Part shown: in pieces, positions 49,332 through 64,000 of the stretch
How positions within the stretch are numbered: the first letter of the stretch is position 1
Layout of the letters: the number at the start of each line of letters is the position of its first letter
NCBI RefSeq assembly: GCF_036365525.1
Contig: NC_090417.1
Span: forward strand, 13,927,344 to 13,991,343
Origin: Heterodontus francisci
Taxonomy: Eukaryota
Direction of reading: 5' to 3'
Length of the DNA stretch: 64,000 nucleotides
The notes under the pieces: model-generated
What the model saw: the letters and a program-made list of their open reading frames with translations, nothing else
The model's database searches: none
Told to the model about the DNA's origin: nothing
Made by a program: the position numbers and the translations under genes

Positions 49332-49577
49332 AGAACAAAGATAATTACAGCACAGGAACAGGCCCTTCGGCCCTCCAAGCCTGCGCCGATCCAGATCCTC
49401 TCTCTAAACATGTCGCCTATTTTCTAAGGTTCTGTATCTCTTTTCTTCCTGCCCATTCATGTATCTGTCTAGATACATCTTAAAAGACTCCATTGTGCCC
49501 GCGTCTACCACCTCCGCTGGCAACGCGTTCCAGGTGCCCACCACCCTCTGCGTAAAGAACTTTCCACGCTCATTTCC
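49332..49577 (-). mobile_element. CR1 3' end (host of the full-length CR1); continues at 53854-54364
   Basis: FFTQRVVGTWNALP-coding sequence joins seamlessly to ...FKVKGEMFRG at 53854. Confidence 0.88.
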
Positions 49578-49937
49578 CGGCGGAGCAGCAGGAGAAGGTA
49601 GCGACTCTTCGGTGGGGAAGTGAAGGCACCAGGAACTGTGTTTTGAAAGTTGTACTTACTGTTTTCCTTGTGTTCAAGCTACTTTTGGCGCGGGAGGAAC
49701 CGGAAGCTGGACGGCAGCAAGGACTCCTGGGTAGGTATTTTCTTTAAAGGTGCGGAGCAGAGTTAACCCGAGACACTACACATGTAGTGTCTCCCACCCA
49801 TCCTCCTCCTCTAACCTAATAATAAGACCCTTTTTACCCTCCTCCTCTAACCAAAAAGGACTGAACAGGTAAGCTATTTCACTGTTTTTGTTAATATCTA
49901 TATTTGTACTTAATTAAGGGGTAATTGAGTAAAAGAA

Positions 49938-50858
49938 ATGGCAGCCAGGGGAGTGCAGTGCTCCTCCTGCAGTATGTTCGAGGTGAGGGGAACCTCCGGT
50001 GACCCTGCCGACTTCACCTGCTGGAAGTGCATCCGTCTCCAGCTCCTATCAGACCGTGTTAGGGAACTGGAGCTGGAGCTGGATGAACTGAGGATCATTC
50101 GGGAAGCTGAGGGGGTGATAGATAGAAGCTACAGGGATGTCGTTACTCCACAAAACAAAGGCAGCTGGGTAACAGTTAGAGGTGGGAAGAGGTCAGTGCA
50201 GGGATCTCCTGTGGTCGTTCCCCTCAGCAACAAGTATACAGTTTTAGATACTGTTGGGGGGGACGGCCTATCGGGGGCAGGCTGCAGTGAACGGGCCTCT
50301 GGCACGGGGTCCTGCACTGTGGCTCAGAAGGGAAGGAGGGAAAATGGGAGAGCACTAGTCATCGGGGACTCGATGGTGAGGAGTACGGACAGGCGGTTCT
50401 GTGGGCGCAAGCGAGACGCACGGATGGTTTGCTGCCTCCCTGGTGCCAGGGTCCGTGATGTTTGTGATCGCGTCTTCAGGATCCTTAAAGGGGAGGGGGA
50501 GCAGCCAGAGGTCGTGGTGCACATTGGCACCAACGACGTAGGAAGGAAGGGTGGCACAGATGTTAGAAGTGAGTTTAGGGAGTTAGGCTGGAAGCTGAAA
50601 GCTCGGACGGACAGAGTTGTTATCTCTGGTTTGTTGCCGGCGCCACGTGATAGTGAGGCTAGGAATAGGGAGAGAGCACAGCTGAACACGTGGCTGCAGG
50701 AATGGTGTAGGAGGGAGGGCTTCCAGTTCTTGGATAATTGGACTGCATTCTGGGGAAGATGGGACCTGTTCAAACAGGACGGGCTGCATCTGAACCAGAG
50801 GGGCACCAATATCCTGGGAGGGAGGTTTGCTAGTACTGTTCGGGAGGGTTTAAACTAG
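49938..50858 (+). CDS. CR1 ORF1p: CxxC...CxxC zinc finger, coiled coil, SGNH/GDSL esterase-like domain
   Basis: CSSC...CWKC, LSDRVRELELELDEL, IGDS, GA, HIGTND and DGLH blocks. 306 aa, intact. Confidence 0.95.
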   Translation: MAARGVQCSSCSMFEVRGTSGDPADFTCWKCIRLQLLSDRVRELELELDELRIIREAEGVIDRSYRDVVTPQNKGSWVTVRGGKRSVQGSPVVVPLSNKYTVLDTVGGDGLSGAGCSERASGTGSCTVAQKGRRENGRALVIGDSMVRSTDRRFCGRKRDARMVCCLPGARVRDVCDRVFRILKGEGEQPEVVVHIGTNDVGRKGGTDVRSEFRELGWKLKARTDRVVISGLLPAPRDSEARNRERAQLNTWLQEWCRREGFQFLDNWTAFWGRWDLFKQDGLHLNQRGTNILGGRFASTVREGLN

Positions 50859-53748
50859 TTTGGGAGGGGGATGGGAACCGGACTTGTAGTCCAGGGACCA
50901 GTGGGTCCACTCAGAAAGACAAAGAGTGTAGTGAGGTATTGGGGAAGGTAGCACTGTCGCAGAGGACAGATGGGCACGGAGAAGGGTTAAAGTGCGTATA
51001 CTTCAACGCAAGAAGCATCAGGAATAAGGTGAGTGAATTGAAGGCGTGGATGGGCACTTGGGACTACGATGTTGTGGCCATCACTGAAACGTGGATAGGT
51101 GAGGGGGAGGAATGGTTCTTGGAGGTACCTGGTTATAGATGTTTTCATAAGATTAGGAATGGTGGTAAAAGAGGTGGGGGGGTGGCATTGTTAGTTAGAA
51201 ATAGTGTAACAACTGCTGAAAGAATTTTCGAGGAGGATCTGCCGACTGAGGCACTGTGGGTTGAGGTCAGGAACAGGAAAGGAGCAGTCACCTTGATGGG
51301 AGTTTTCTATCGGCCCCCCAATAGCAGCAGGGAGGTGGAAGAGCAGATTGGGAAACAGATTTTGGAAAGGAGCAGAAGTCACAGGGTAGTAATTATGGGG
51401 GATTTCAACTTCCCAAATATTGATTGGCAACTCTTTAGATCGAATAGTTTGGATGGGGTAGTGTTTGTGCAGTATGTCCAGGAAGCTTTTCTGACTCAGT
51501 ATGTAGACTGCCCGACCAGAGGGGAGGCAATATTGGATTTGGTACTAGGTAATGAACCAGGGCAAGTGATAGAGCTGTTGGTGGGCGAGCACTTTGGAGA
51601 TAGTGATCACAATTCTGTAGCATTCACTGTGGTAATGGAGAGGGATAGGTATGTGCAACAGGGCAAGGTTTACAATTGGGGGAAGGGTAGATATGATGCT
51701 GTCAGGCAGGAACTGAGGAGCATAAGTTGGGAGCATATGCTGGCAGGGAAGGGCACGGTCGAAATGTGGAACTTTTTCAAGGAGCAGATAGTAGGGGCCA
51801 TTGATAAGCATGTCCCTGTCAGACAGGGAAGGGATGGTCATGTGAGGGAACCGTGGTTGACAAGAGAGGTTGAGAGTCTTGTTAGGAAGAAGAAGGATGC
51901 GTATATAAGGTTGAGGAAAAAGGGCACAGGCATAGCTCTGGAGGGATACAAGATGGCCAGGAAGGATCTGAAGAAAGGGATTAGGAGAGCTAAGAGAGGG
52001 CATGAAAAATGCTTGGCGGGTAGGATAAAAGAAAACCCCAAGGCCTTTTACGCGTATGTCAGAAATATGAGGATGACTAGGGGACCGTAGGTCCGGTCAA
52101 GGACAATAGCGGGAGACTGTGTGTTGAGCCGGAAGAGATAAGTGAGGTTTTGAATGAGTACTTCTCTTCGGTATTTACGAATGAGAAGGGGTGTATTACT
52201 GAAGAGGACGGTGTGAAACAGACTGGTAAGCTCGAGGAAGTGCTCGTTAGGAGGGAAGATGTGTTGGGGTTTTTGAATAACTTGAAGATAGACAAGTCTC
52301 CCGGGCCTGACGGGGTATATCCAAGGATGTTATGGGAAGCAAGGGATGAAATTGCAGAGCCGCTGGCAATGATCTTTTCATCTTCTCTGTTGACGGGGGT
52401 GGTACCAGGTGATTGGAGGGTGGCAAATGTTGTGCCCCTGTTCAAGAAAGGAAATAGGAACAACCCTGGGAATTACAGGCCAGTTAGTCTTACTTCGGTG
52501 GTAGGCAAGTTGATGGAAAAGGTGCTGAGGGATAGGATTTCTGAGCATCTGGAAAGACAATGCTTGATTCGGGACAGTCAGCACGGTTTTGTGAGGGGTA
52601 GGTCTTGCCTCACAAGCCTGATTGAATTCTTTGAGCAGGTGACCAAGCAAGTGGATGAGGGTAAACCAGTGGATGTGGTGTACATGGATTTTAGTAAGGC
52701 ATTTGATAAGGTCCCCCATGGTAGACTTATGGAGAAAGTCAGGAGGCATGGGATAGTGGGGAATGTGGCCAGTTGGATTAAGAATTGGCTAACTGATAGA
52801 AGGCAGAGAGTGGTCTTAGATGGTAAATACTCAGCCTGGAGCCCAGTTACCAGTGGCGTGCCACAGGGATCAGTTCTGGGTCCTCTCCTGTTTGTGATTT
52901 TTATTAACGACTTGGATGAGGAAGTCGAAGGGTGGGTCAGTAAATTTGCAGATGATACAAAGGTTGGTGGAGTTGTGGATACCGAGGAGGGCTATTGTCG
53001 TCTGCAAAGGGACTTGGATAGGTTGCAGTGCTGGGCTGAAAAGTGGCAGATGGAGTTTAACCCTGAAAAGTGTGAGGTCGTCCATTTTGGAAGGACAAAC
53101 ACGAATGCAAAATACTGGGTTAACGGTAGGGTTCTTGGGCATGTGGAGGAGCAGAGAGACCTTGGGGTCTATGTGCATAGATCGTTGAAAGTTGCAACTC
53201 AAGTGGATAGGGCTGTGAAGAAGGCATATGGGGTGTTAGCGTTCATTAGCAGAGGGATTGAATTTAAGAGCCGTGAGGTGATGATGCAGCTGTACAGGAC
53301 CTTGGTAAGGCCTCATTTGGAGTACTGTGTGCAGTTCTGGTCGCCTCATTTTAGGAAGGATGTGGAAGCCTTGGAGAGGGTGCAGAGGAGATTTACCAGG
53401 ATGTTGCCTGGAATGGAGAATAAGTCTTACGAGGAAAGGCTGAACATTCTAGGCCTCTTCTCATTAGAACGGAGAAGGATGAGGGGTGACATGATAGAGG
53501 TTTATAAGATGATCAGGGGAATAGATAGGGTAGACAGTCAGAAACTTTTTCCCCGGGTGGAGCAAAGCGTTACAAGGGGTCATAAATTTAAGGTGAAGGG
53601 TGGGAGATATAAGGGGGATGTCAGGGGAAGGTTCTTTACCCAGAGAGTGGTCGGGGCATGGAATGCCTTGCCTGGGGAAGTTGTTGAGTCAGAAACTTTA
53701 GGGACTTTCAAACGGCTTTTAGATAGGTATATGGATAAAGGAGAATGA
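50849..53748 (+). CDS. CR1 ORF2p (APE endonuclease and reverse transcriptase), split by one missing base at 52080-52083
   Basis: YFNARS, ITETW, YRPPN, GDFN, SDHN (endonuclease); [34 protein letters not shown] (RT). The frame is open from 50834, with no ATG before the endonuclease motifs. Confidence 0.93.
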
Positions 53749-53853
53749 TGGGGTATAGATTAAATTGTCCTTGACAGAGGACAAAGGATCGGCACAACAT
53801 CGTGGGCCGAAGGGCCTGTTCTGTGCTGTATTTTTCTATGTTCTATGTTCTAT

Positions 53854-54364
53854 CCCCCCTAAACATTTCCCCTTTCACTTTGAACTCGTGTCCTCTAGTA
53901 ATTGAAACCCCCACTCTGGGAAAAAGCCTCTTGCTATCCACTCTGTCTATACCTCTCATGATTTTGTACACCTCAATCAGGTCCCCCCTCAACCTCCGTC
54001 TTTCTAATGAAAATAATCCTAATCTACTCAACCTCTCTTCATAGCTAGCGCCCTCCATACCAGGCAACATCCTGGTGAACCTCCTCTGCACCCTCTCCAA
54101 AGCATCCACATCCTTTTGATAATGTGGCGACCAGAACTGCACGCAGTATTCCAAATGTGGCCGAACCAAAGTCCTATACAACTGTAACATGACCTGCCAA
54201 CTCTTGTACTCAATGCCCCGTCCGATGAAGGAAAGCATGCCGTATGCCTTCTTGACCACTCTATTTACCTGCGTTGCCACCTTCAGGGAACAGTGGACCT
54301 GAACACCCAAATCTCTCTGGACATCAATTTTCCCCAGGACTTTTCCATTTACTTGATAGTTCAC
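53854..54364 (-). mobile_element. 5'-truncated CR1, right portion of the host element
   Basis: Uninterrupted QRDLGVQVH...LVRPHLEYCVQFWSPHYQKD frame. Confidence 0.93.
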
Positions 54365-54452
54365 TCACAGGGCAAGAGACGGGAGAGGCCATGGAGGGAT
54401 TTGAAAACAAGGATGTATATTTTTAAATCAAGACATTGCTTGACCGGGAGCC

Positions 54453-57400
54453 AACGTCAGTCAGCGAACGCAGGGGTGACAGGGGAACGGGACATGGTGT
54501 GTGTTAATGTAGGTCAGTGAGTACAGGGGTGATAGGGGAATGGGACTTGGTGTGTGTTAATGTAGGTCAGTGAGGACAGGGGTGATAGGGGAACGGGACT
54601 TGGTGTGTGTTAATGTAGGTCAGTGAGTACAGGGGTGATAGGGGAATGGGACTTGGTGTGTGTTAATGTAGGTCAGTGAGCACAGGGGTGATAGGGGAAT
54701 GGGACTTGGTGTGTGTTAATGTAGGTCAGTGAGTACAGGGGTGATAGGGGAATGGGACTTGGTGTGTGTTAATGTAGGTCAGTGAGTACAGGGGTGACAG
54801 GGGAACGGGACTTGGTGTGTGTTAATGTCGGTCAGTGATTACAGGGGTGATAGGGGAATGGGACTTGGTGTGTGTTAATGTTGGTCAGTGAGCACAGGAG
54901 TGATAGGGGAACGGGACATGGTGTGTGTTAATGTAGGTCAGTGAGCACAGGGGTGATAGGGGAACGGGACTTGGTGTGTGTTAATGTAGGTCAGTGAGTA
55001 CAGGGGTGATAGGGGAATGGGACTTGGTGTGTGTTAATGTTGGTCAGTGAGTACAGGGGTGATAGGGGAACGTGTCTTGGTGTGTGTTAATGTAGGTCAG
55101 TGAGTACAGGGGTGATAGGGGAACGGGACTTGGTGTGTGTTAATGTAGGTCAGTGAGTACAGGGGTGATAGGGGAATGGGACTTGGTGTGTGTTAATGTA
55201 GGTCAGTGAGCACAGGGGTGATAGGGGAATGGGACTTGGTGTGTGTTAATGTAGGTCAGTGAGTACAGGGGTGATAGGGGAATGGGACTTGGTGTGTGTT
55301 AATGTAGGTCAGTGATTACAGGGGTGATAGGGGAATGGGACTTGGTGTGTGTTAATGTTGGTCAGTGAGCACAGGAGTGATAGGGGAACGGGACATGGTG
55401 TGTGTTAATGTAGGTCAGTGAGCACAGGGGTGATAGGGGAACGGGACTTGGTGTGTGTTAATGTAGGTCAGTGAGTACAGGGGTGATAGGGGAATGGGAC
55501 TTGGTGTGTGTTAATGTTGGTCAGTGAGTACAGGGGTGATAGGGGAATGGGACTTGGTGTGTGTTAATGTAGGTCAGTGAGTACAGGGGTGATAGGGGAA
55601 AGGAACTTGGTGTGTGTTAATGTAGGTCAGTGAGTACAGGGGTGATAGGGGAACGGGACTTGGTGTGTGTTAATATAGGTCAGTGAGTACAGGGGTGATA
55701 GGGGAAGGGGACTTGGTGTGTGTTAATGTAGGTCAGTGAGTACAGGGGTGATAGGGGAATGGGACTTGGTGTGTGTTAATGTTGGTCAGTGAGCACAGGA
55801 GTGATAGGGGAACGGGACTTGGTGTGTGTTAATGTAGGTCAGTGAGTACAGGGGTGATTGGGGAACGGGACTTGGTGTGTGTTAATGTAGGTCAGTGAGT
55901 ACAGGAGTGATAGGGGAACGGGACTTGGTGTGTGTTAATATAGGTCAGTGAGCACAGGGGTGATAGGGGAACGGGACTTGGTGTGTGTTAATGTCGGTCA
56001 GTGAGTACAGGGGTGATAGGGGAATGGGACATGGTGTGTGTTAATGTAGGTCAGTGAGCACAGGGGTGATAGGGGAACGGGACTTGGTGTGTGTTAATGT
56101 AGGTCAGTGAGTACAGGGGTGATTGGGGAACGGGACTTGGTGTGTGTTAATGTAGGTCAGTGAGTACAGGGGTGATAGGGGAATGGGACTTGGTGTGTGT
56201 TAATGTAGGTCAGTGAGTACAGGGGTGATAGGGGAACGGGACTTGGTGTGTGTTAATGTCGGTCAGTGAGTACAGGAGTGATAGGGGAACGGGACTTGGT
56301 GTGTGTTAATATAGGTCAGTGAGCACAGGGGTGATAGGGGAACGGGACTTGGTGTGTGTTAATGTCGGTCAGTGAGTACAGGGGTGATAGGGGAATGGGA
56401 CATGGTGTGTGTTAATGTAGGTCAGTGAGCACAGGGGTGATAGGGGAACGGGACTTGGTGTGTGTTAATGTAGGTCAGTGAGTACAGGGGTGATAGGGGA
56501 ATGGGACTTGGTGTGTGTTAATGTTGGTCAGTGAGTACAGGGGTGATAGGGGAATGGGACTTGGTGTGTGTTAATGTAGGTCAGTGAGTACAGGGGTGAT
56601 AGGGGAAAGGAACTTGGTGTGTGTTAATGTAGGTCAGTGAGTACAGGGGTGATAGGGGAACGGGACTTGGTGTGTGTTAATGTAGGTCAGTGAGTACAGG
56701 GGTTATAGGGGAACGGGACTTGGTGTGTGTTAATATAGGTCAGTGAGTACAGGGGTGATAGGGGAAGGGGACTTATTGTGTGTTAATGTAGGTCAGTGAG
56801 TACAGGGGTGATAGGGGAATGGGACTTGGTGTGTGTTAATGTTGGTCAGTGAGCACAGGAGTGATAGGGGAATGGGACTTGGTGTGTGTTAATGTTGGTC
56901 AGTGAGTACAGGGGTGATAGGGGAATGGGACTTGGTGTGTGTTAATGTAGGTCAGTGAGGACAGGGGTGATAGGGGAAAGGAACTTGGTGTGTGTTAATG
57001 TAGGTCAGTGAGCACAGGGGTGATAGGGGAACGGGACTTGGTGTGTGTTAATGTAGGTCAGTGAGGACAGGGGTGATAGGGGAAAGGAACTTGGTGTGTG
57101 TTAATGTAGGTCAGTGAGTACAGGGGTGATAGGGGAATGGGACTTGGTGTGTGTTAATGTCGGTCAGTGAGTACAGGGGTGATAGAGGAACGGGTCTTGG
57201 TGTGTGTTAATATAGGTCAGTGAGAACAGGGGTGATAGGGGAACGGGACTTGGTGTGTGTTAATATAGGTCAGTGAGCACAGGGGTGATAGGGGAAAGGG
57301 ACTTGGTGTGTGTTAATGTAGGTCAGTGAGCACAGGGGTGATAGGGGAATGGGACTTGGTGTGTGTTAATGTAGGTCAGTGAGTACAGGGGTGATAGGGG

Positions 57401-60400
57401 AATGGGACTTGGTGTGTGTTAATGTAGGTCAGTGAGTACAGGGGTGACAGGGGAACGGGACTTGGTGTGTGTTAATGTCGGTCAGTGATTACAGGGGTGA
57501 TAGGGGAATGGGACTTGGTGTGTGTTAATGTTGGTCAGTGAGCACAGGAGTGATAGGGGAACGGGACATGGTGTGTGTTAATGTAGGTCAGTGAGCACAG
57601 GGGTGATAGGGGAACGGGACTTGGTGTGTGTTAATGTAGGTCAGTGAGTACAGGGGTGATAGGGGAATGGGACTTGGTGTGTGTTAATGTTGGTCAGTGA
57701 GTACAGGGGTGATAGGGGAAAGGAACTTGGTGTGTGTTAATGTAGGTCAGTGAGTACAGGGGTGATAGGGGAACGGGACTTGGTGTGTGTTAATGTAGGT
57801 CAGTGAGCACAGGGGTGATAGGGGAACGGGACTTGGTGTGTGTTAATGTAGGTCAGTGAGTACAGGGGTGATAGGGGAATGGGACTTGGTGTGTGTTAAT
57901 GTTGGTCAGTGAGTACAGGGGTGATAGGGGAATGGGACTTGGTGTGTGTTAATGTAGGTCAGTGAGTACAGGGGTGATAGGGGAAAGGAACTTGGTGTAT
58001 GTTAATGTAGGTCAGTGAGTACAGGGGTGATAGGGGAACGGGACTTGGTGTGTGTTAATGTAGGTCAGTGAGTACAGGGGTTATAGGGGAACGGGACTTG
58101 GTGTGTGTTAATATAGGTCAGTGAGTACAGGGGTGATAGGGGAAGGGGACTTGGTGTGTGTTAATGTAGGTCAGTGAGTACAGGGGTGATAGGGGAATGG
58201 GACTTGGTGTGTGTTAATGTTGGTCAGTGAGCACAGGAGTGATAGGGGAACGGGACTTGGTGTGTGTTAATGTAGGTCAGTGAGTACAGGGGTGATAGGG
58301 GAACGGGACTTGGTGTGTGTTAATATAGGTCAGTGAGCACAGGGGTGATAGGGGAATGGGACATGGTGTGTGTTAATGTAGGTCAGTGAGCACAGGGGTG
58401 ATAGGGGAACGGGACTTGGTGTGTGTTAATGTAGGTCAGTGAGTACAGGGGTGATAGGGGAATGGGACTTGGTGTGTGTTAATGTTGGTCAGTGAGTACA
58501 GGGGTGATAGGGGAATGGGACTTGGTGTGTGTTAATGTAGGTCAGTGAGTACAGGGGTGATAGGGGAAAGGAACTTGGTGTGTGTTAATGTAGGTCAGTG
58601 AGTACAGGGGTGATAGGGGAACGGGACTTGGTGTGTGTTAATGTAGGTCAGTGAGTACAGGGGTTATAGGGGAACGGGACTTGGTGTGTGTTAATATAGG
58701 TCAGTGAGTACAGGGGTGATAGGGGAAGGGGACTTATTGTGTGTTAATGTAGGTCAGTGAGTACAGGGGTGATAGGGGAATGGGACTTGGTGTGTGTTAA
58801 TGTTGGTCAGTGAGCACAGGAGTGATAGGGGAATGGGACTTGGTGTGTGTTAATGTTGGTCAGTGAGTACAGGGGTGATAGGGGAATGGGACTTGGTGTG
58901 TGTTAATGTAGGTCAGTGAGGACAGGGGTGATAGGGGAAAGGAACTTGGTGTGTGTTAATGTAGGTCAGTGAGCACAGGGGTGATAGGGGAACGGGACTT
59001 GGTGTGTGTTAATGTAGGTCAGTGAGGACAGGGGTGATAGGGGAAAGGAGCTTGGTGTGTGTTAATGTAGGTCAGTGAGCACAGGGGTTATAGGGAAACG
59101 GGACTTGGTGTGTGTTAATGTAGGTCAGTGAGTACAGGGGTGATAGGGGAATGGGACTTGGTGTGTGTTAATGTCGGTCAGTGAGTACAGGGGTGATAGG
59201 GGAACGGGACTTGGTGTGTGTTAATGTAGGTCAGTGAGTACAGGGGTGATAGGGGAAAGGAACTTGGTGTGTGTTAATGTAGGTCAGTGAGTACAGGGGT
59301 GATAGGGGAACGGGACTTGGTGTGTGTTAATGTAGGTCAGTGAGTACAGGGGTTATAGGGGAACGGGACTTGGTGTGTGTTAATATAGGTCAGTGAGTAC
59401 AGGGGTGATAGGGGAAGGGGACTTGGTGTGTGTTAATGTAGGTCAGTGAGTACAGGGGTGATAGGGGAAGGGGACTTGGTGTGTGTTAATGTAGGTCAGT
59501 GAGCACAGGGGTGATAGGGGAACGGGACTTGGTGTGTGTTAATGTAGGTCAGTGAGTACAGGGGTGATAGGGGAACGGGACTTGGTGTGTGTTAATATAG
59601 GTCAGTGAGTACAGGGGTGATAGGGGAATGGGACTTGGTGTGTGTTAATGTAGGTCAGTGAGCACAGGGGTGATAGGGGAACGGGACTTGGTGTGTGTTA
59701 ATGTAGGTCAGTGAGCACAGGGGTGATAGGGGAACGGGACTTGGTGTGTGTTAATGTAGGTCAGTGAGTACAGGGGTGATAGGGGAATGGGACTTGGTGT
59801 GTGTTAATGTTGGTCAGTGAGTACAGGGGTGATAGGGGAAAGGAACTTGGTGTGTGTTAATGTAGGTCAGTGAGTACAGGGGTGATAGGGGAACGGGACT
59901 TGGTGTGTGTTAATGTAGGTCAGTGAGCACAGGGGTGATAGGGGAACGGGACTTGGTGTGTGTTAATGTAGGTCAGTGAGTACAGGGGTGATAGGGGAAT
60001 GGGACTTGGTGTGTGTTAATGTTGGTCAGTGAGTACAGGGGTGATAGGGGAATGGGACTTGGTGTGTGTTAATGTAGGTCAGTGAGTACAGGGGTGATAG
60101 GGGAAAGGAACTTGGTGTGTGTTAATGTAGGTCAGTGAGTACAGGGGTGATAGGGGAATGACACTTGGTGTGTGTTAATGTAGGTCAGTGAGTACAGGAG
60201 TTATAGGGGAACGGGACTTGGTGTGTGTTAATATAGGTCAGTGAGTACAGGGGTGATAGGGGAAGGGGACTTGGTGTGTGTTAATGTAGGTCAGTGAGTA
60301 CAGGGGTGATAGGGGAATGGGACTTGGTGTGTGTTAATGTTGGTCAGTGAGCACAGGAGTGATAGGGGAACGGGACATGGTGTGTGTTAATGTAGGTCAG

Positions 60401-63400
60401 TGAGTACAGGGGTGATAGGGGAATGGGACTTGGTGTGTGTTAATGTTGGTCAGTGAGTACAGGGGTGATAGGGGAATGGGACTTGGTGTGTGTTAATGTA
60501 GGTCAGTGAGTACAGGGGTGATAGGGGAAAGGAACTTGGTGTGTGTTAATGTAGGTCAGTGAGTACAGGGGTGATAGGGGAACGGGACTTGGTGTGTGTT
60601 AATGTAGGTCAGTGAGTACAGGGGTTATAGGGGAACGGGACTTGGTGTGTGTTAATATAGGTCAGTGAGTACAGGGGTGATAGGGGAAGGGGACTTGGTG
60701 TGTGTTAATGTAGGTCAGTGAGTACAGGGGTGATAGGGGAATGGGACTTGGTGTGTGTTAATGTAGGTCAGTGAGTACAGGGGTGATAGGGGAACGGGAC
60801 TTGGTGTGTGTTAATGTAGGTCAGTGAGTACAGGGGTGATAGGGGAATGGGACTTGGTGTGTGTTAATGTAGGTCAGTGAGTACAGGGGTGATAGGGGAA
60901 CGGGACTTGGTGTGTGTTAATGTAGGTCAGTGATTACAGGGGTGATAGGGGAATGGGACTTGGTGTGTGTTAATGTTGGTCAGTGAGCACAGGGATGATA
61001 GGGGAACGGGACTTGGTGTGTGTTAATGTAGGTCAGTGAGTACAGGGGTGATAGGGGAACGGGTCTTGGTGTGTGTTAATGTTGGTCAGTGAGTACAGGG
61101 GTGATAGAGGAACGGGTCTTGGTGTGTGTTAATATAGGTCAGTGAGCACAGGGGTGATAGGGGAACGGGACTTGGTGTGTGTTAATATAGGTCAGTGAGC
61201 ACAGGGGTGATAGGGGAAAGGGACTTGGTGTGTGTTAATGTAGGTCAGTGAGTACAGGGGTGATAGGGGAACGGGACTTGGTGTGTGTTAATGTAGGTCA
61301 GTGAGTACAGGGGTGATAGGGGAACGGGTCTTGGTGTGTGTTAATATAGGTCAGTGAGTACAGGGGGTGATAGGGGAATGGGACTTGGTGTGTGTTAATG
61401 TCGGTCAGTGAGTACAGGGGTGATTGGGGAACGGGACTTGGTGTGTGTTAATGTCGGTCAGTGAGCACAGGAGTGATAGGGGAACGGGACTTGGTGTGTG
61501 TTAATGTAGGTCAGTGAGTACAGGGGTGATAGGGGAACGGGACTTGGTGTGTGTTAATATAGGTCAGTGAGCACAGGGGTGATAGGGGAACGGGACTTGG
61601 TGTGTGTTAATGTCGGTCAGTGAGTACAGGGGTGATAGGGGAATGGGACATGGTGTGTGTTAATGTAGGTCAGTGAGCACAGGGGTGATAGGGGAACGGG
61701 ACTTGGTGTGTGTTAATGTAGGTCAGTGAGTACAGGGGTGATAGGGGAATGGGACTTGGTGTGTGTTAATGTTGGTCAGTGAGTACAGGGGTGATAGGGG
61801 AATGGGACTTGGTGTGTGTTAATGTAGGTCAGTGAGTACAGGGGTGATAGGGGAAAGGAACTTGGTGTGTGTTAATGTAGGTCAGTGAGTACAGGGGTGA
61901 TAGGGGAACGGGACTTGGTGTGTGTTAATGTAGGTCAGTGAGTACAGGGGTTATAGGGGAACGGGACTTGGTGTGTGTTAATATAGGTCAGTGAGTACAG
62001 GGGTGATAGGGGAAGGGGACTTATTGTGTGTTAATGTAGGTCAGTGAGTACAGGGGTGATAGGGGAATGGGACTTGGTGTGTGTTAATGTTGGTCAGTGA
62101 GCACAGGAGTGATAGGGGAATGGGACTTGGTGTGTGTTAATGTTGGTCAGTGAGTACAGGGGTGATAGGGGAATGGGACTTGGTGTGTGTTAATGTAGGT
62201 CAGTGAGGACAGGGGTGATAGGGGAAAGGAACTTGGTGTGTGTTAATGTAGGTCAGTGAGCACAGGGGTGATAGGGGAACGGGACTTGGTGTGTGTTAAT
62301 GTAGGTCAGTGAGGACAGGGGTGATAGGGGAAAGGAGCTTGGTGTGTGTTAATGTAGGTCAGTGAGCACAGGGGTTATAGGGGAACGGGACTTGGTGTGT
62401 GTTAATGTAGGTCAGTGAGTACAGGGGTGATAGGGGAATGGGACTTGGTGTGTGTTAATGTCGGTCAGTGAGTACAGGGGTGATAGGGGAACGGGACTTG
62501 GTGTGTGTTAATGTAGGTCAGTGAGTACAGGGGTGATAGGGGAAAGGAACTTGGTGTGTGTTAATGTAGGTCAGTGAGTACAGGGGTGATAGGGGAACGG
62601 GACCTGGTGTGTGTTAATGTAGGTCAGTGAGTACAGGGGTTATAGGGGAACGGGACTTGGTGTGTGTTAATATAGGTCAGTGAGTACAGGGGTGATAGGG
62701 GAAGGGGACTTGGTGTGTGTTAATGTAGGTCAGTGAGTACAGGGGTGATAGGGGAAGGGGACTTGGTGTGTGTTAATGTAGGTCAGTGAGTACAGGGGTG
62801 ATAGGGGAATGGGACTTGGTGTGTGTTAATGTAGGTCAGTGAGCACAGGGGTGATAGGGGAACGGGACTTGGTGTGTGTTAATGTAGGTCAGTGAGCACA
62901 GGGGTGATAGGGGAATGGGACTTGGTGTGTGTTAATGTAGGTCAGTGAGTACAGGGGTGATAGGGGAATGGGACTTGGTGTGTGTTAATGTTGGTCAGTG
63001 AGTACAGGGGTGATAGGGGAATGGGACTTGGTGTGTGTTAATGTTGGTCAGTGAGTACAGGGGTGATAGGGGAATGGGACTTGGTGTGTGTTAATGTAGG
63101 TCAGTGAGTACAGGGGTGATAGGGGAAAGGAACTTGGTGTGTGTTAATGTAGGTCAGTGAGTACAGGGGTGATAGGGGAATGACACTTGGTGTGTGTTAA
63201 TGTAGGTCAGTGAGCACAGGGGTGATAGGGGAATGGGACTTGGTGTGTGTTAATGTTGGTCAGTGAGTACAGGGGTGATAGGGGAATGGGACTTGGTGTG
63301 TGTTAATGTAGGTCAGTGAGTACAGGGGTGATAGGGGAAAGGAACTTGGTGTGTGTTAATGTAGGTCAGTGAGTACAGGGGTGATAGGGGAATGACACTT

Positions 63401-64000
63401 GGTGTGTGTTAATGTAGGTCAGTGAGTACAGGGGTTATAGGGGAACGGGACTTGGTGTGTGTTAATATAGGTCAGTGAGGACAGGGGTGATAGGGGAAGG
63501 GGACTTGGTGTGTGTTAATGTAGGTCAGTGAGTACAGGGGTGATAGGGGAATGGGACTTGGTGTGTGTTAATGTTGGTCAGTGAGCACAGGAGTGATAGG
63601 GGAACGGGACATGCTGTGTGTTAATGTAGGTCAGTGAGTACAGGGGTGATAGGGGAATGGGACTTGGTGTGTGTTAATGTTGGTCAGTGAGTACAGGGGT
63701 GATAGGGGAATGGGACTTGGTGTGTGTTAATGTAGGTCAGTGAGTACAGGGGTGATAGGGGAAAGGAACTTGGTGTGTGTTAATGTAGGTCAGTGAGTAC
63801 AGGGGTGATAGGGGAACGGGACTTGGTGTGTGTTAATGTAGGTCAGTGAGTACAGGGGTTATAGGGGAACGGGACTTGGTGTGTGTTAATATAGGTCAGT
63901 GAGTACAGGGGTGATAGGGGAAGGGGACTTGGTGTGTGTTAATGTAGGTCAGTGAGTACAGGGGTGATAGGGGAATGGGACTTGGTGTGTGTTAATGTAG
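54453..64000. repeat. Tandem satellite, 53-bp monomer aatgtaggtcagtgagtacaggggtgataggggaa(t/c)gggacttggtgtgtgtt, ~180 copies, extends past the window
   Basis: Period of 53 nt read directly (54506, 54559, ...), with only substitution variants and rare 1-nt indels. Confidence 0.99.

Follow-up and report, generated by a model that had tools for sequence, protein, structure and literature searches.

A conserved slippery heptamer at the ORF1/ORF2 junction of a Heterodontus francisci CR1 element: a candidate programmed −1 frameshift signal

The translation of ORF2 from long interspersed nuclear elements (LINEs) with two open reading frames (ORFs) has been described as unclear (PMC3708506; here and below, each paper is cited for the passage concerned). 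Here we analyse the ORF1/ORF2 junction of a CR1-type LINE in a 64,000-nt stretch of the Heterodontus francisci genome (assembly GCF_036365525.1, contig NC_090417.1, forward-strand positions 13,927,344 to 13,991,343). This whole stretch is called the window, and positions are counted from its first letter. The junction carries a U_UUA_AAC heptamer of the coronavirus type, and comparison with related elements indicates that it is a real, ancient nucleotide-level signal. We consider it probable that programmed −1 frameshifting at this junction yields a minor ORF1p–ORF2p fusion.

Three groups of LINEs offer the nearest comparisons within the class. Human L1 and silkworm SART1 (PMC5972666) are, like CR1, bicistronic RNAs that encode an apurinic-type (APE) endonuclease and a reverse transcriptase (RT), with low ORF2 output. 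Their ORF2, however, has an AUG (after a 63-nt spacer, or in a UAAUG that overlaps the stop) and gives a separate ORF2p, whereas the CR1 ORFs overlap, without an AUG and with a heptamer. The Dictyostelium elements TRE5-A and TRE3-A are APE-type LINEs with two ORFs, for which a −1 frameshift is stated to be necessary for ORF2 (PMC5911963); frameshifting in LINEs is therefore not new as an idea. They belong to another clade and have another type of ORF1, while the CR1 site is defined and conserved across vertebrates. For Paramecium LINE groups 1–3 (PMC5405496), recoding was likewise suggested from the consensus layout (+1 frameshifting or reinitiation, and in group 3 readthrough, as in the CR1 sister clade described below), but the shift is +1 rather than −1, the clade is a separate ciliate one and the case is a prediction only. 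Our full-text literature search found no frameshift proposal for CR1, although the original CR1 descriptions (Haas 1997, Kajikawa 1997) and Kapitonov and Jurka 2003 lay outside its coverage and may hold one. PMC13343379 showed no passage on overlap, translation or start codons, and the LINE discussion in PMC5009743 covers HeT-A, TART and L1.

Among viruses, the nidovirus ORF1a/1b junction (PMC5009743) shares with CR1 the U_UUA_AAC heptamer, its register, a tolerated G variant and a start-less polymerase ORF in the −1 frame. Unlike it, CR1 has no pseudoknot at 5–9 nt, has a stop directly after the heptamer, is a LINE and encodes no protease. At the arterivirus nsp2 and cardiovirus sites (PMC5009743) a conserved element, either structure or linear RNA, lies at a longer spacer (11–14 nt; the run of five G, G5, in CR1 begins at +11). 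The CR1 motif is G-rich and not C-rich, however, the arterivirus shift is mainly −2, and trans-acting factors are known for the viral sites but not for CR1. Retroviral Gag-Pol (−1 frameshifting in Rous sarcoma virus, readthrough in gamma- and epsilonretroviruses) also combines an excess of the structural product with a minor polymerase fusion, and its relatives use frameshifting or readthrough, as two LINE clades appear to. In contrast, CR1 ORF1p is an SGNH esterase and not Gag (PMC3905857), and CR1 has neither protease nor capsid.

CR1-group elements account for 22–34% of the genome in sharks and rays (PMC13343379); in chicken, the share of CR1 is about 12% (PMC11835228). With a conserved signal of 22 nt defined, the translation of CR1 ORF2 becomes directly testable. 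If the frameshift is real, the start of CR1 ORF2p would be relocated, the esterase and coiled coil would travel with the RT, and the junction would be a widespread natural frameshift signal, seemingly without the usual RNA structure.

The slip site and its conservation

The features at the junction are as follows.

49938..50858, + strand: ORF1, 306 aa, ending REGLN (ATG at 49938, from the translation; Pfam PF13472, E 7.6e-14)
50849..50855, + strand: slippery heptamer T_TTA_AAC in the ORF1 register (from the sequence; exact in 14/18 relatives)
50856..50858, + strand: ORF1 stop TAG, directly 3′ of the heptamer (TAG in 13/18 relatives, TGA in 1/18, a sense codon in 4/18)
50834..52090, + strand: 5′ part of ORF2, in the −1 frame; a stop-free linker of about 47 codons, then the APE endonuclease (PF03372, E 1.3e-20; match to the human L1 endonuclease)
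50863..50870, + strand: conserved G-(A/C/G)-A-GGGGG motif with the G5 run at 50866-50870 (candidate linear stimulator)

The 3′ end of ORF1 reads GGT TTA AAC TAG. A preceding sequence-only reading had placed TTTAAAC at 50849-50855, immediately 5′ of the ORF1 stop and in X_XXY_YYZ register, and had described an ORF2 in the −1 frame that is open from 50834 and has its first ATG at 51050, past the endonuclease motif YFNARS; coordinates and frames were confirmed throughout. The two strands of the window together hold 5633 stop triplets. A canonical heptamer of any kind precedes 15 of them, and TTTAAAC precedes the ORF1 stop alone. In variants from related families the stop is TAA. No variant fell inside 50849-50857 among the copy variants listed from four sequencing runs, a result that we do not count as evidence.

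Relatives were taken from a metagenome scan, in which 80 loci were retained of 140 confirmed. Of these, 18 are window-type and cover the junction (the relatives counted here), 13 end before the junction and were left out, and 49 belong to other clades. The viral contigs, prokaryote genome contigs and plasmids searched held no relatives. The heptamer was exact in 14 of the 18, and the other four read GTTAAAC, TTTAAAT, TTTCAAC and TTTACGA. The locus with G_TTA_AAC (L001) has an ORF2 frame that is open for 2912 nt, and VKL stands at the junction in the database proteins P0155 and P0161. G_UU(A) is a tolerated heptamer variant in equine arteritis virus, and on mammalian ribosomes U_UUA_AAC ranks with the heptamers that shift most readily (PMC5009743).

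Conservation was pronounced at synonymous positions. The terminal Leu codon was TTA in 17/17 relatives, compared to 29/283 elsewhere in the same ORF1s, and the terminal Asn codon was AAC in 16/17 (background 40/85). The base before the Leu codon was T in 17/18 (background for a wobble T, 679/2790). For comparison, the most frequent codon reached only 25–85% at 24 further conserved columns of ORF1. Between lineages, only 91 of 448 comparisons of shared Leu residues showed the same codon (four frame-broken rows excluded), and because synonymous Leu sites are thus saturated, the conservation of TTA does not come from recent common descent. Nor can overlapping F-K coding explain the heptamer, since the −1 frame has a stop 1–2 codons 5′ of it in 12/18 relatives, with no start codon common to them there. 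In a tree of the ORF1 esterase (67 rows), slip-type rows fell in 4–5 deep lineages, and the row closest to the window was 43% identical. Taken together, the codon counts indicate that the heptamer is selected at the nucleotide level, beyond the needs of the protein.

The −1 frame and routes to ORF2

In 12 rows, the window and 11 relatives, the endonuclease motif lies in the −1 frame (it is in another frame in two further relatives and missing from two, and three end too soon). In 11 of these rows the −1 linker was open all the way from the heptamer to the motif. The expectation from shuffling was 0.007–0.23 per row. Linker length ranged from 101 to 272 nt, and the +1 frame was closed in all 12 rows. 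In the window, YFNARS (residues 56–61) lies at about 50999-51016, and the ATG at 51050 is residue 73; the window and 5 of the 11 relatives lack an in-frame ATG upstream of the motif. Among database ORF2 proteins, 91 of 154 contained the motif, 10 of them extending back to FKL or VKL, and N-termini lay at scattered Met residues. These proteins show no common ORF2 start, though their N-termini depend on gene callers. As a separate observation, a 26-codon ORF (50871-50951) in the frame of ORF1 begins with an ATG 12 nt past the stop of ORF1; it is not conserved in the relatives.

One explanation confines conservation to the protein: the C-terminal Leu-Asn would be needed as such, and ORF2 would start at a downstream ATG such as that at 51050. 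ORF1 consists of an N-terminal CX2C-X16-CX2C, a coiled-coil-like segment and an SGNH/GDSL esterase, followed by Leu-Asn and the stop. Leu-Asn is C-terminal in 81 of the 120 ORF1 homologs listed, and in 80 of the 89 that extend to the DGxH motif; its distance from DGxH is 26 residues in 77 of these 80, which could be structural. However, Leu-Asn stays at the stop where the length of the helix has changed (3 of the 80 proteins, together with loci L001, L003, L004 and L005). A start at 51050 would lose the part of ORF2 that matches human L1 endonuclease residues 1–30, including the conserved NARS motif, whose Asn we take to be the equivalent of the catalytic Asn14. The explanation also leaves aside TTA in 17/17 relatives, the T that precedes it, the open linker and the GGG codon found in 15/15 rows downstream (see below). 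The codon test appears largely to refute it, and we regard it as highly unlikely.

A second explanation is termination and AUG-independent reinitiation, as for L1, in which ribosomes would terminate at the UAG and resume translation close by, in the −1 frame, making a separate ORF2p, with the heptamer and G5 run serving as restart signals. Reinitiation is the known route for L1 and SART1, and caliciviral restart accepts non-AUG codons (PMC5972666); the open linker would also be accounted for. Two nucleotides past the stop, the codon of the −1 frame is ATG in 4, GTG in 3 and TTG in 1 of the 18 relatives, but the window has TGG there, and the other 10 relatives have TCG, TGG, GCA or a different non-start codon. 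The hallmarks of the SART1/calicivirus type are an AUG at or near the ORF1 stop and an upstream ribosome-binding site of the kind used in termination–reinitiation (TURBS). An in-frame AUG of this kind is missing from the window and is not shared by the relatives. A TURBS-like TGGGA was absent from 7 of 19 rows and scattered in the rest, and a TURBS was rejected as it stood at no fixed distance. Moreover, reinitiation predicts neither the exact X_XXY_YYZ pattern nor its G_UUA_AAC variant. Overall, we judge it to be unlikely.

Two further routes were weighed against the same junction. If TTTAAACTAG were a splice acceptor, ORF2 could be made from spliced RNA. The sequence ends in YAG in most copies, and a strong donor-like CAG/GTAAG lies near 49868 in the 5′ untranslated region (UTR). 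No polypyrimidine tract precedes it, however (30–48% pyrimidine upstream), and the acceptor was rejected. In addition, TAA variants (three loose-end reads behind 50857, and proteins P0129 and P0038) remove the AG; no joint ended at 50859 among the joints listed, which is weak evidence as it covers contigs only; and the sole ATG of the 5′ UTR (49782) meets a stop immediately. Splicing is therefore given very little credence. Slippage of RNA polymerase, adding a base in T3A3 so that some transcripts encode an in-frame fusion, would give the same product with the same frame relation. Against this, there was no indel at the site among those listed, and runs of three are far shorter than known polymerase slippage tracts, which makes this route equally hard to credit.

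The candidate stimulator and a model for frameshifting

The G5 run occupies nt +11 to +15 past the heptamer, at a fixed 10-nt spacer (3 nt closer in L001). G was found at +11, +12, +13 and +14 in 16/17, 17/17, 15/17 and 15/16 relatives, respectively. The Gly codon in the run was GGG in 15/15 rows compared to a background of 60/200, and the preceding wobble base was G in 15/15 (L001, L008, L018 and L019 left out). Three divergent families known from loose-end reads have a TAA stop and a G run at the same distance. While spacers at −1 sites are usually 5–9 nt, they are 11–14 nt at the arterivirus and cardiovirus sites, where long-spacer elements have been tied to trans-acting factors, and one plant-virus frameshift requires a nearby stop codon (PMC5009743). 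As a short motif at a fixed spacer, the G5 run would fall with the protein-stimulated arterivirus/cardiovirus type. Together, the stop and the G5 run may form a pause signal, although this is the weakest step of the frameshift model.

Further downstream lies one more feature.

50880..50908, + strand: two 5-bp hairpins, not conserved; other copies differ at 50889 and 50899

The sequence-only reading had proposed that a G-quadruplex and these hairpins, from a 6-nt spacer onwards, stimulate the shift. The G-run cluster does begin 6 nt after the heptamer (at 50862), and the hairpins are present where it put them (50880-50892 and 50895-50908), but this stimulator is not conserved, and the downstream RNA of the window folded no better than shuffles (z −1.5 to +0.1, five segments). 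A quadruplex with hairpins is a rival for the stimulator only, the −1 frameshift being the same. Two-tier quadruplexes were predicted by ViennaRNA in the window and 3 more of 17 rows, and synthetic quadruplexes raise frameshifting (PMC5009743). In contrast, the three-tier pattern occurred in none of the 17 rows, and L003, L004, L005 and L011 each carry one G6 run only, beyond which the sequence is A-rich. Position 50864 was C in most of the read depth of all four runs, so most related copies have an interrupted first G3 run, and 50889 was A in the two near-identical full-span contigs, which breaks hairpin 1. The first G3 run and hairpin 1 are thus specific to the window's subfamily or copy, and the two hairpins are probably incidental. 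At the time of a 2016 review, no natural case driven by a quadruplex was known (PMC5009743). We consider this stimulator improbable. A shared G-quadruplex, hairpin, pseudoknot or long-range pairing was in each case rejected as the stimulator. Isolated, weak hints of structure were a hairpin in L003 (1/60 shuffles) and a pseudoknot in L004 (2/60 shuffles).

The junction has three of the features of a canonical −1 site, a heptamer in register, an open start-less −1 ORF and conservation at the nucleotide level, and lacks another, a stem-loop or pseudoknot at 5–9 nt. Because this defining downstream structure is missing, the signal would work like the coronavirus signal, and not as one. In the programmed −1 frameshifting that we favour, a minority of ribosomes would slip back one base at U_UUA_AAC and continue into ORF2, with tRNA-Leu and tRNA-Asn presumably slipping in tandem from UUA-AAC to UUU-AAA. 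The fusion would read ...EGLN-LVWEG..., with the trans-frame peptide EGLNLVWEGDGNR. Most ribosomes would terminate at the UAG and release free ORF1p. What promotes the slip might be a pause caused by the adjacent stop together with an unstructured G5 run, possibly protein-bound, at the edge of the mRNA entry channel, rather than a pseudoknot. LINEs are not known to encode a protease, so ORF2p would retain the coiled coil and esterase and be tied to its own ORF1p particle. The idea of a programmed −1 fusion was already part of the sequence-only reading, and it gains from the conservation of the heptamer and −1 frame at synonymous positions and from the lack of a conserved in-frame ATG before the endonuclease. 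The stimulator proposed with it fell away, as did the junction peptides EGLK and EGFK: printing both frames shows that a standard tandem slip gives EGLN then LVWEGDGNR, and EGLK or EGFK would need single-tRNA or earlier slips.

Several points weigh against programmed −1 frameshifting. There was no conserved 3′ structure at the usual 5–9-nt spacer (fold z −2.0 to +1.5, 17 rows), and a bare heptamer usually shifts weakly. A simple scan found an H-type pseudoknot in 4 of 17 rows, the window not among them, and only that in L004 beat most shuffles; no long-range pairing partner was shared among nine rows. The 18 relatives are not independent, and the effective sample for the codon test is 4–5 deep lineages. 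Four of the 18 deviate from the heptamer and four have no stop; other damage was observed in most of these copies. An in-frame linker ATG is present in 6 of 11 relatives, at unrelated places, and the ATG 2 nt after the ORF1 stop in 4/18 could permit reinitiation. Reinitiation is used by both LINEs for which experiments exist, L1 and SART1 (PMC5972666), and the functions of ORF1 have been argued to need separation from ORF2 (PMC3708506).

The sister clade suggests that a fusion may also be reached by a second route, candidate stop-codon readthrough. Its members are LINEs with an esterase ORF1, at 37 loci (34 distinct), including L025, L028, L031, L035, L038, L042, L048, L050, L053, L057 and L080. 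At the junction, 25 of the 34 distinct rows have a single in-frame TGA followed by CCA (14) or CTA (11), with ORF1 and ORF2 sharing one frame across it, and UGACUA is a known readthrough context (PMC13517186). The same frame was open to the endonuclease motif in 18/37 rows, three of them without Met, while many rows of this clade do have Met residues in the linker. The more distant loci L022 and L065 also have an in-frame TGA-CTA, and L033 an in-frame TAG-GAT.

A wider scenario is possible but, taken as a whole, doubtful. A structure-free shift, made up of the heptamer, the stop and a linear G5 run read by a host G-run binder or by ORF1p feedback, would predate the split between sharks and bony vertebrates. 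Esterase-LINEs would have interchangeable recoding to an uncleaved Gag-Pol-like fusion, by frameshifting in vertebrates and by UGA readthrough in sister clades.

The element, its homologs and its surroundings

The remaining features of the element are as follows.

49578..53853, + strand: near full-length CR1-type LINE (host CR1 flanks by tblastn; 5′ boundary approximate)
52081..53748, + strand: 3′ part of ORF2, reverse transcriptase (PF00078, E 4e-37), out of frame with the 5′ part through a deletion near 52079
53834..53853, + strand: 3′ terminal tandem repeat TTCTATG, about three copies, without poly(A) (read directly in the sequence)

Short tandem repeats at the 3′ end, without poly(A), are typical of CR1. 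The element was assigned to this class by the features of canonical vertebrate CR1 that it carries: an APE endonuclease with RT, an esterase ORF1 and a repeat-type 3′ end. Canonical CR1 has an esterase ORF1, whereas chondrichthyan L2 clade A has no ORF1 (PMC13343379). The element is nested inside an older CR1 of opposite orientation, pieces of which were found by tblastn on the minus strand at 54358-53852 and 49577-49446. Among the 20 largest direct-repeat families in the window, none gave a clear target-site duplication; CATTTCCC is present at 49571 and at 53866, near both ends of the element. The remaining CR1 pieces of the window are 3′ fragments, none with an ORF1/ORF2 junction. In the 5′ UTR, CCTCCTCCTCTAACC is repeated at 36-nt spacing (49794-49873).

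A one-base deletion near 52079 (52079-52090) splits ORF2 in the window copy and is absent from other copies. With this break, the copy in the window is dead as it stands. The sequence-only reading had the ORF2 frame right and did not mention this copy-specific break. Full-span contigs from two other runs differ at 4 and 5 letters over 1.7 kb, both without the break, and because such near-identical copies exist, the family is young.

Homologs of ORF1 that end in Leu-Asn are named from sharks, rays, coelacanth, a teleost, frogs, turtles and squamates, the nearest named ones being from sharks and rays. The search for longer ORF1 homologs gave four proteins. One ORF1 homolog, 91% identical (P0001), is labelled Pseudomonas aeruginosa in the public database, which likely reflects host contamination of the record. 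In two annotated ray proteins, P0121 (named hydroxyacid oxidase 2 isoform X1) and P0038, the ORF1 esterase runs on into the ORF2 linker at FKL; they were set aside as evidence for a fusion, since each is likely a single damaged copy or an annotation product.

Beyond the element, a strongly G-skewed satellite fills 54471-64000, with a 53-bp unit in about 180 copies at 94% match. It begins in direct continuation of a minus-strand LINE fragment (54360-54470). Read on the minus strand, the unit gives HSPITPVLTDLH, an encoded motif that we take to be L2-like. The satellite appears to derive from a C-terminal piece of a LINE ORF2.

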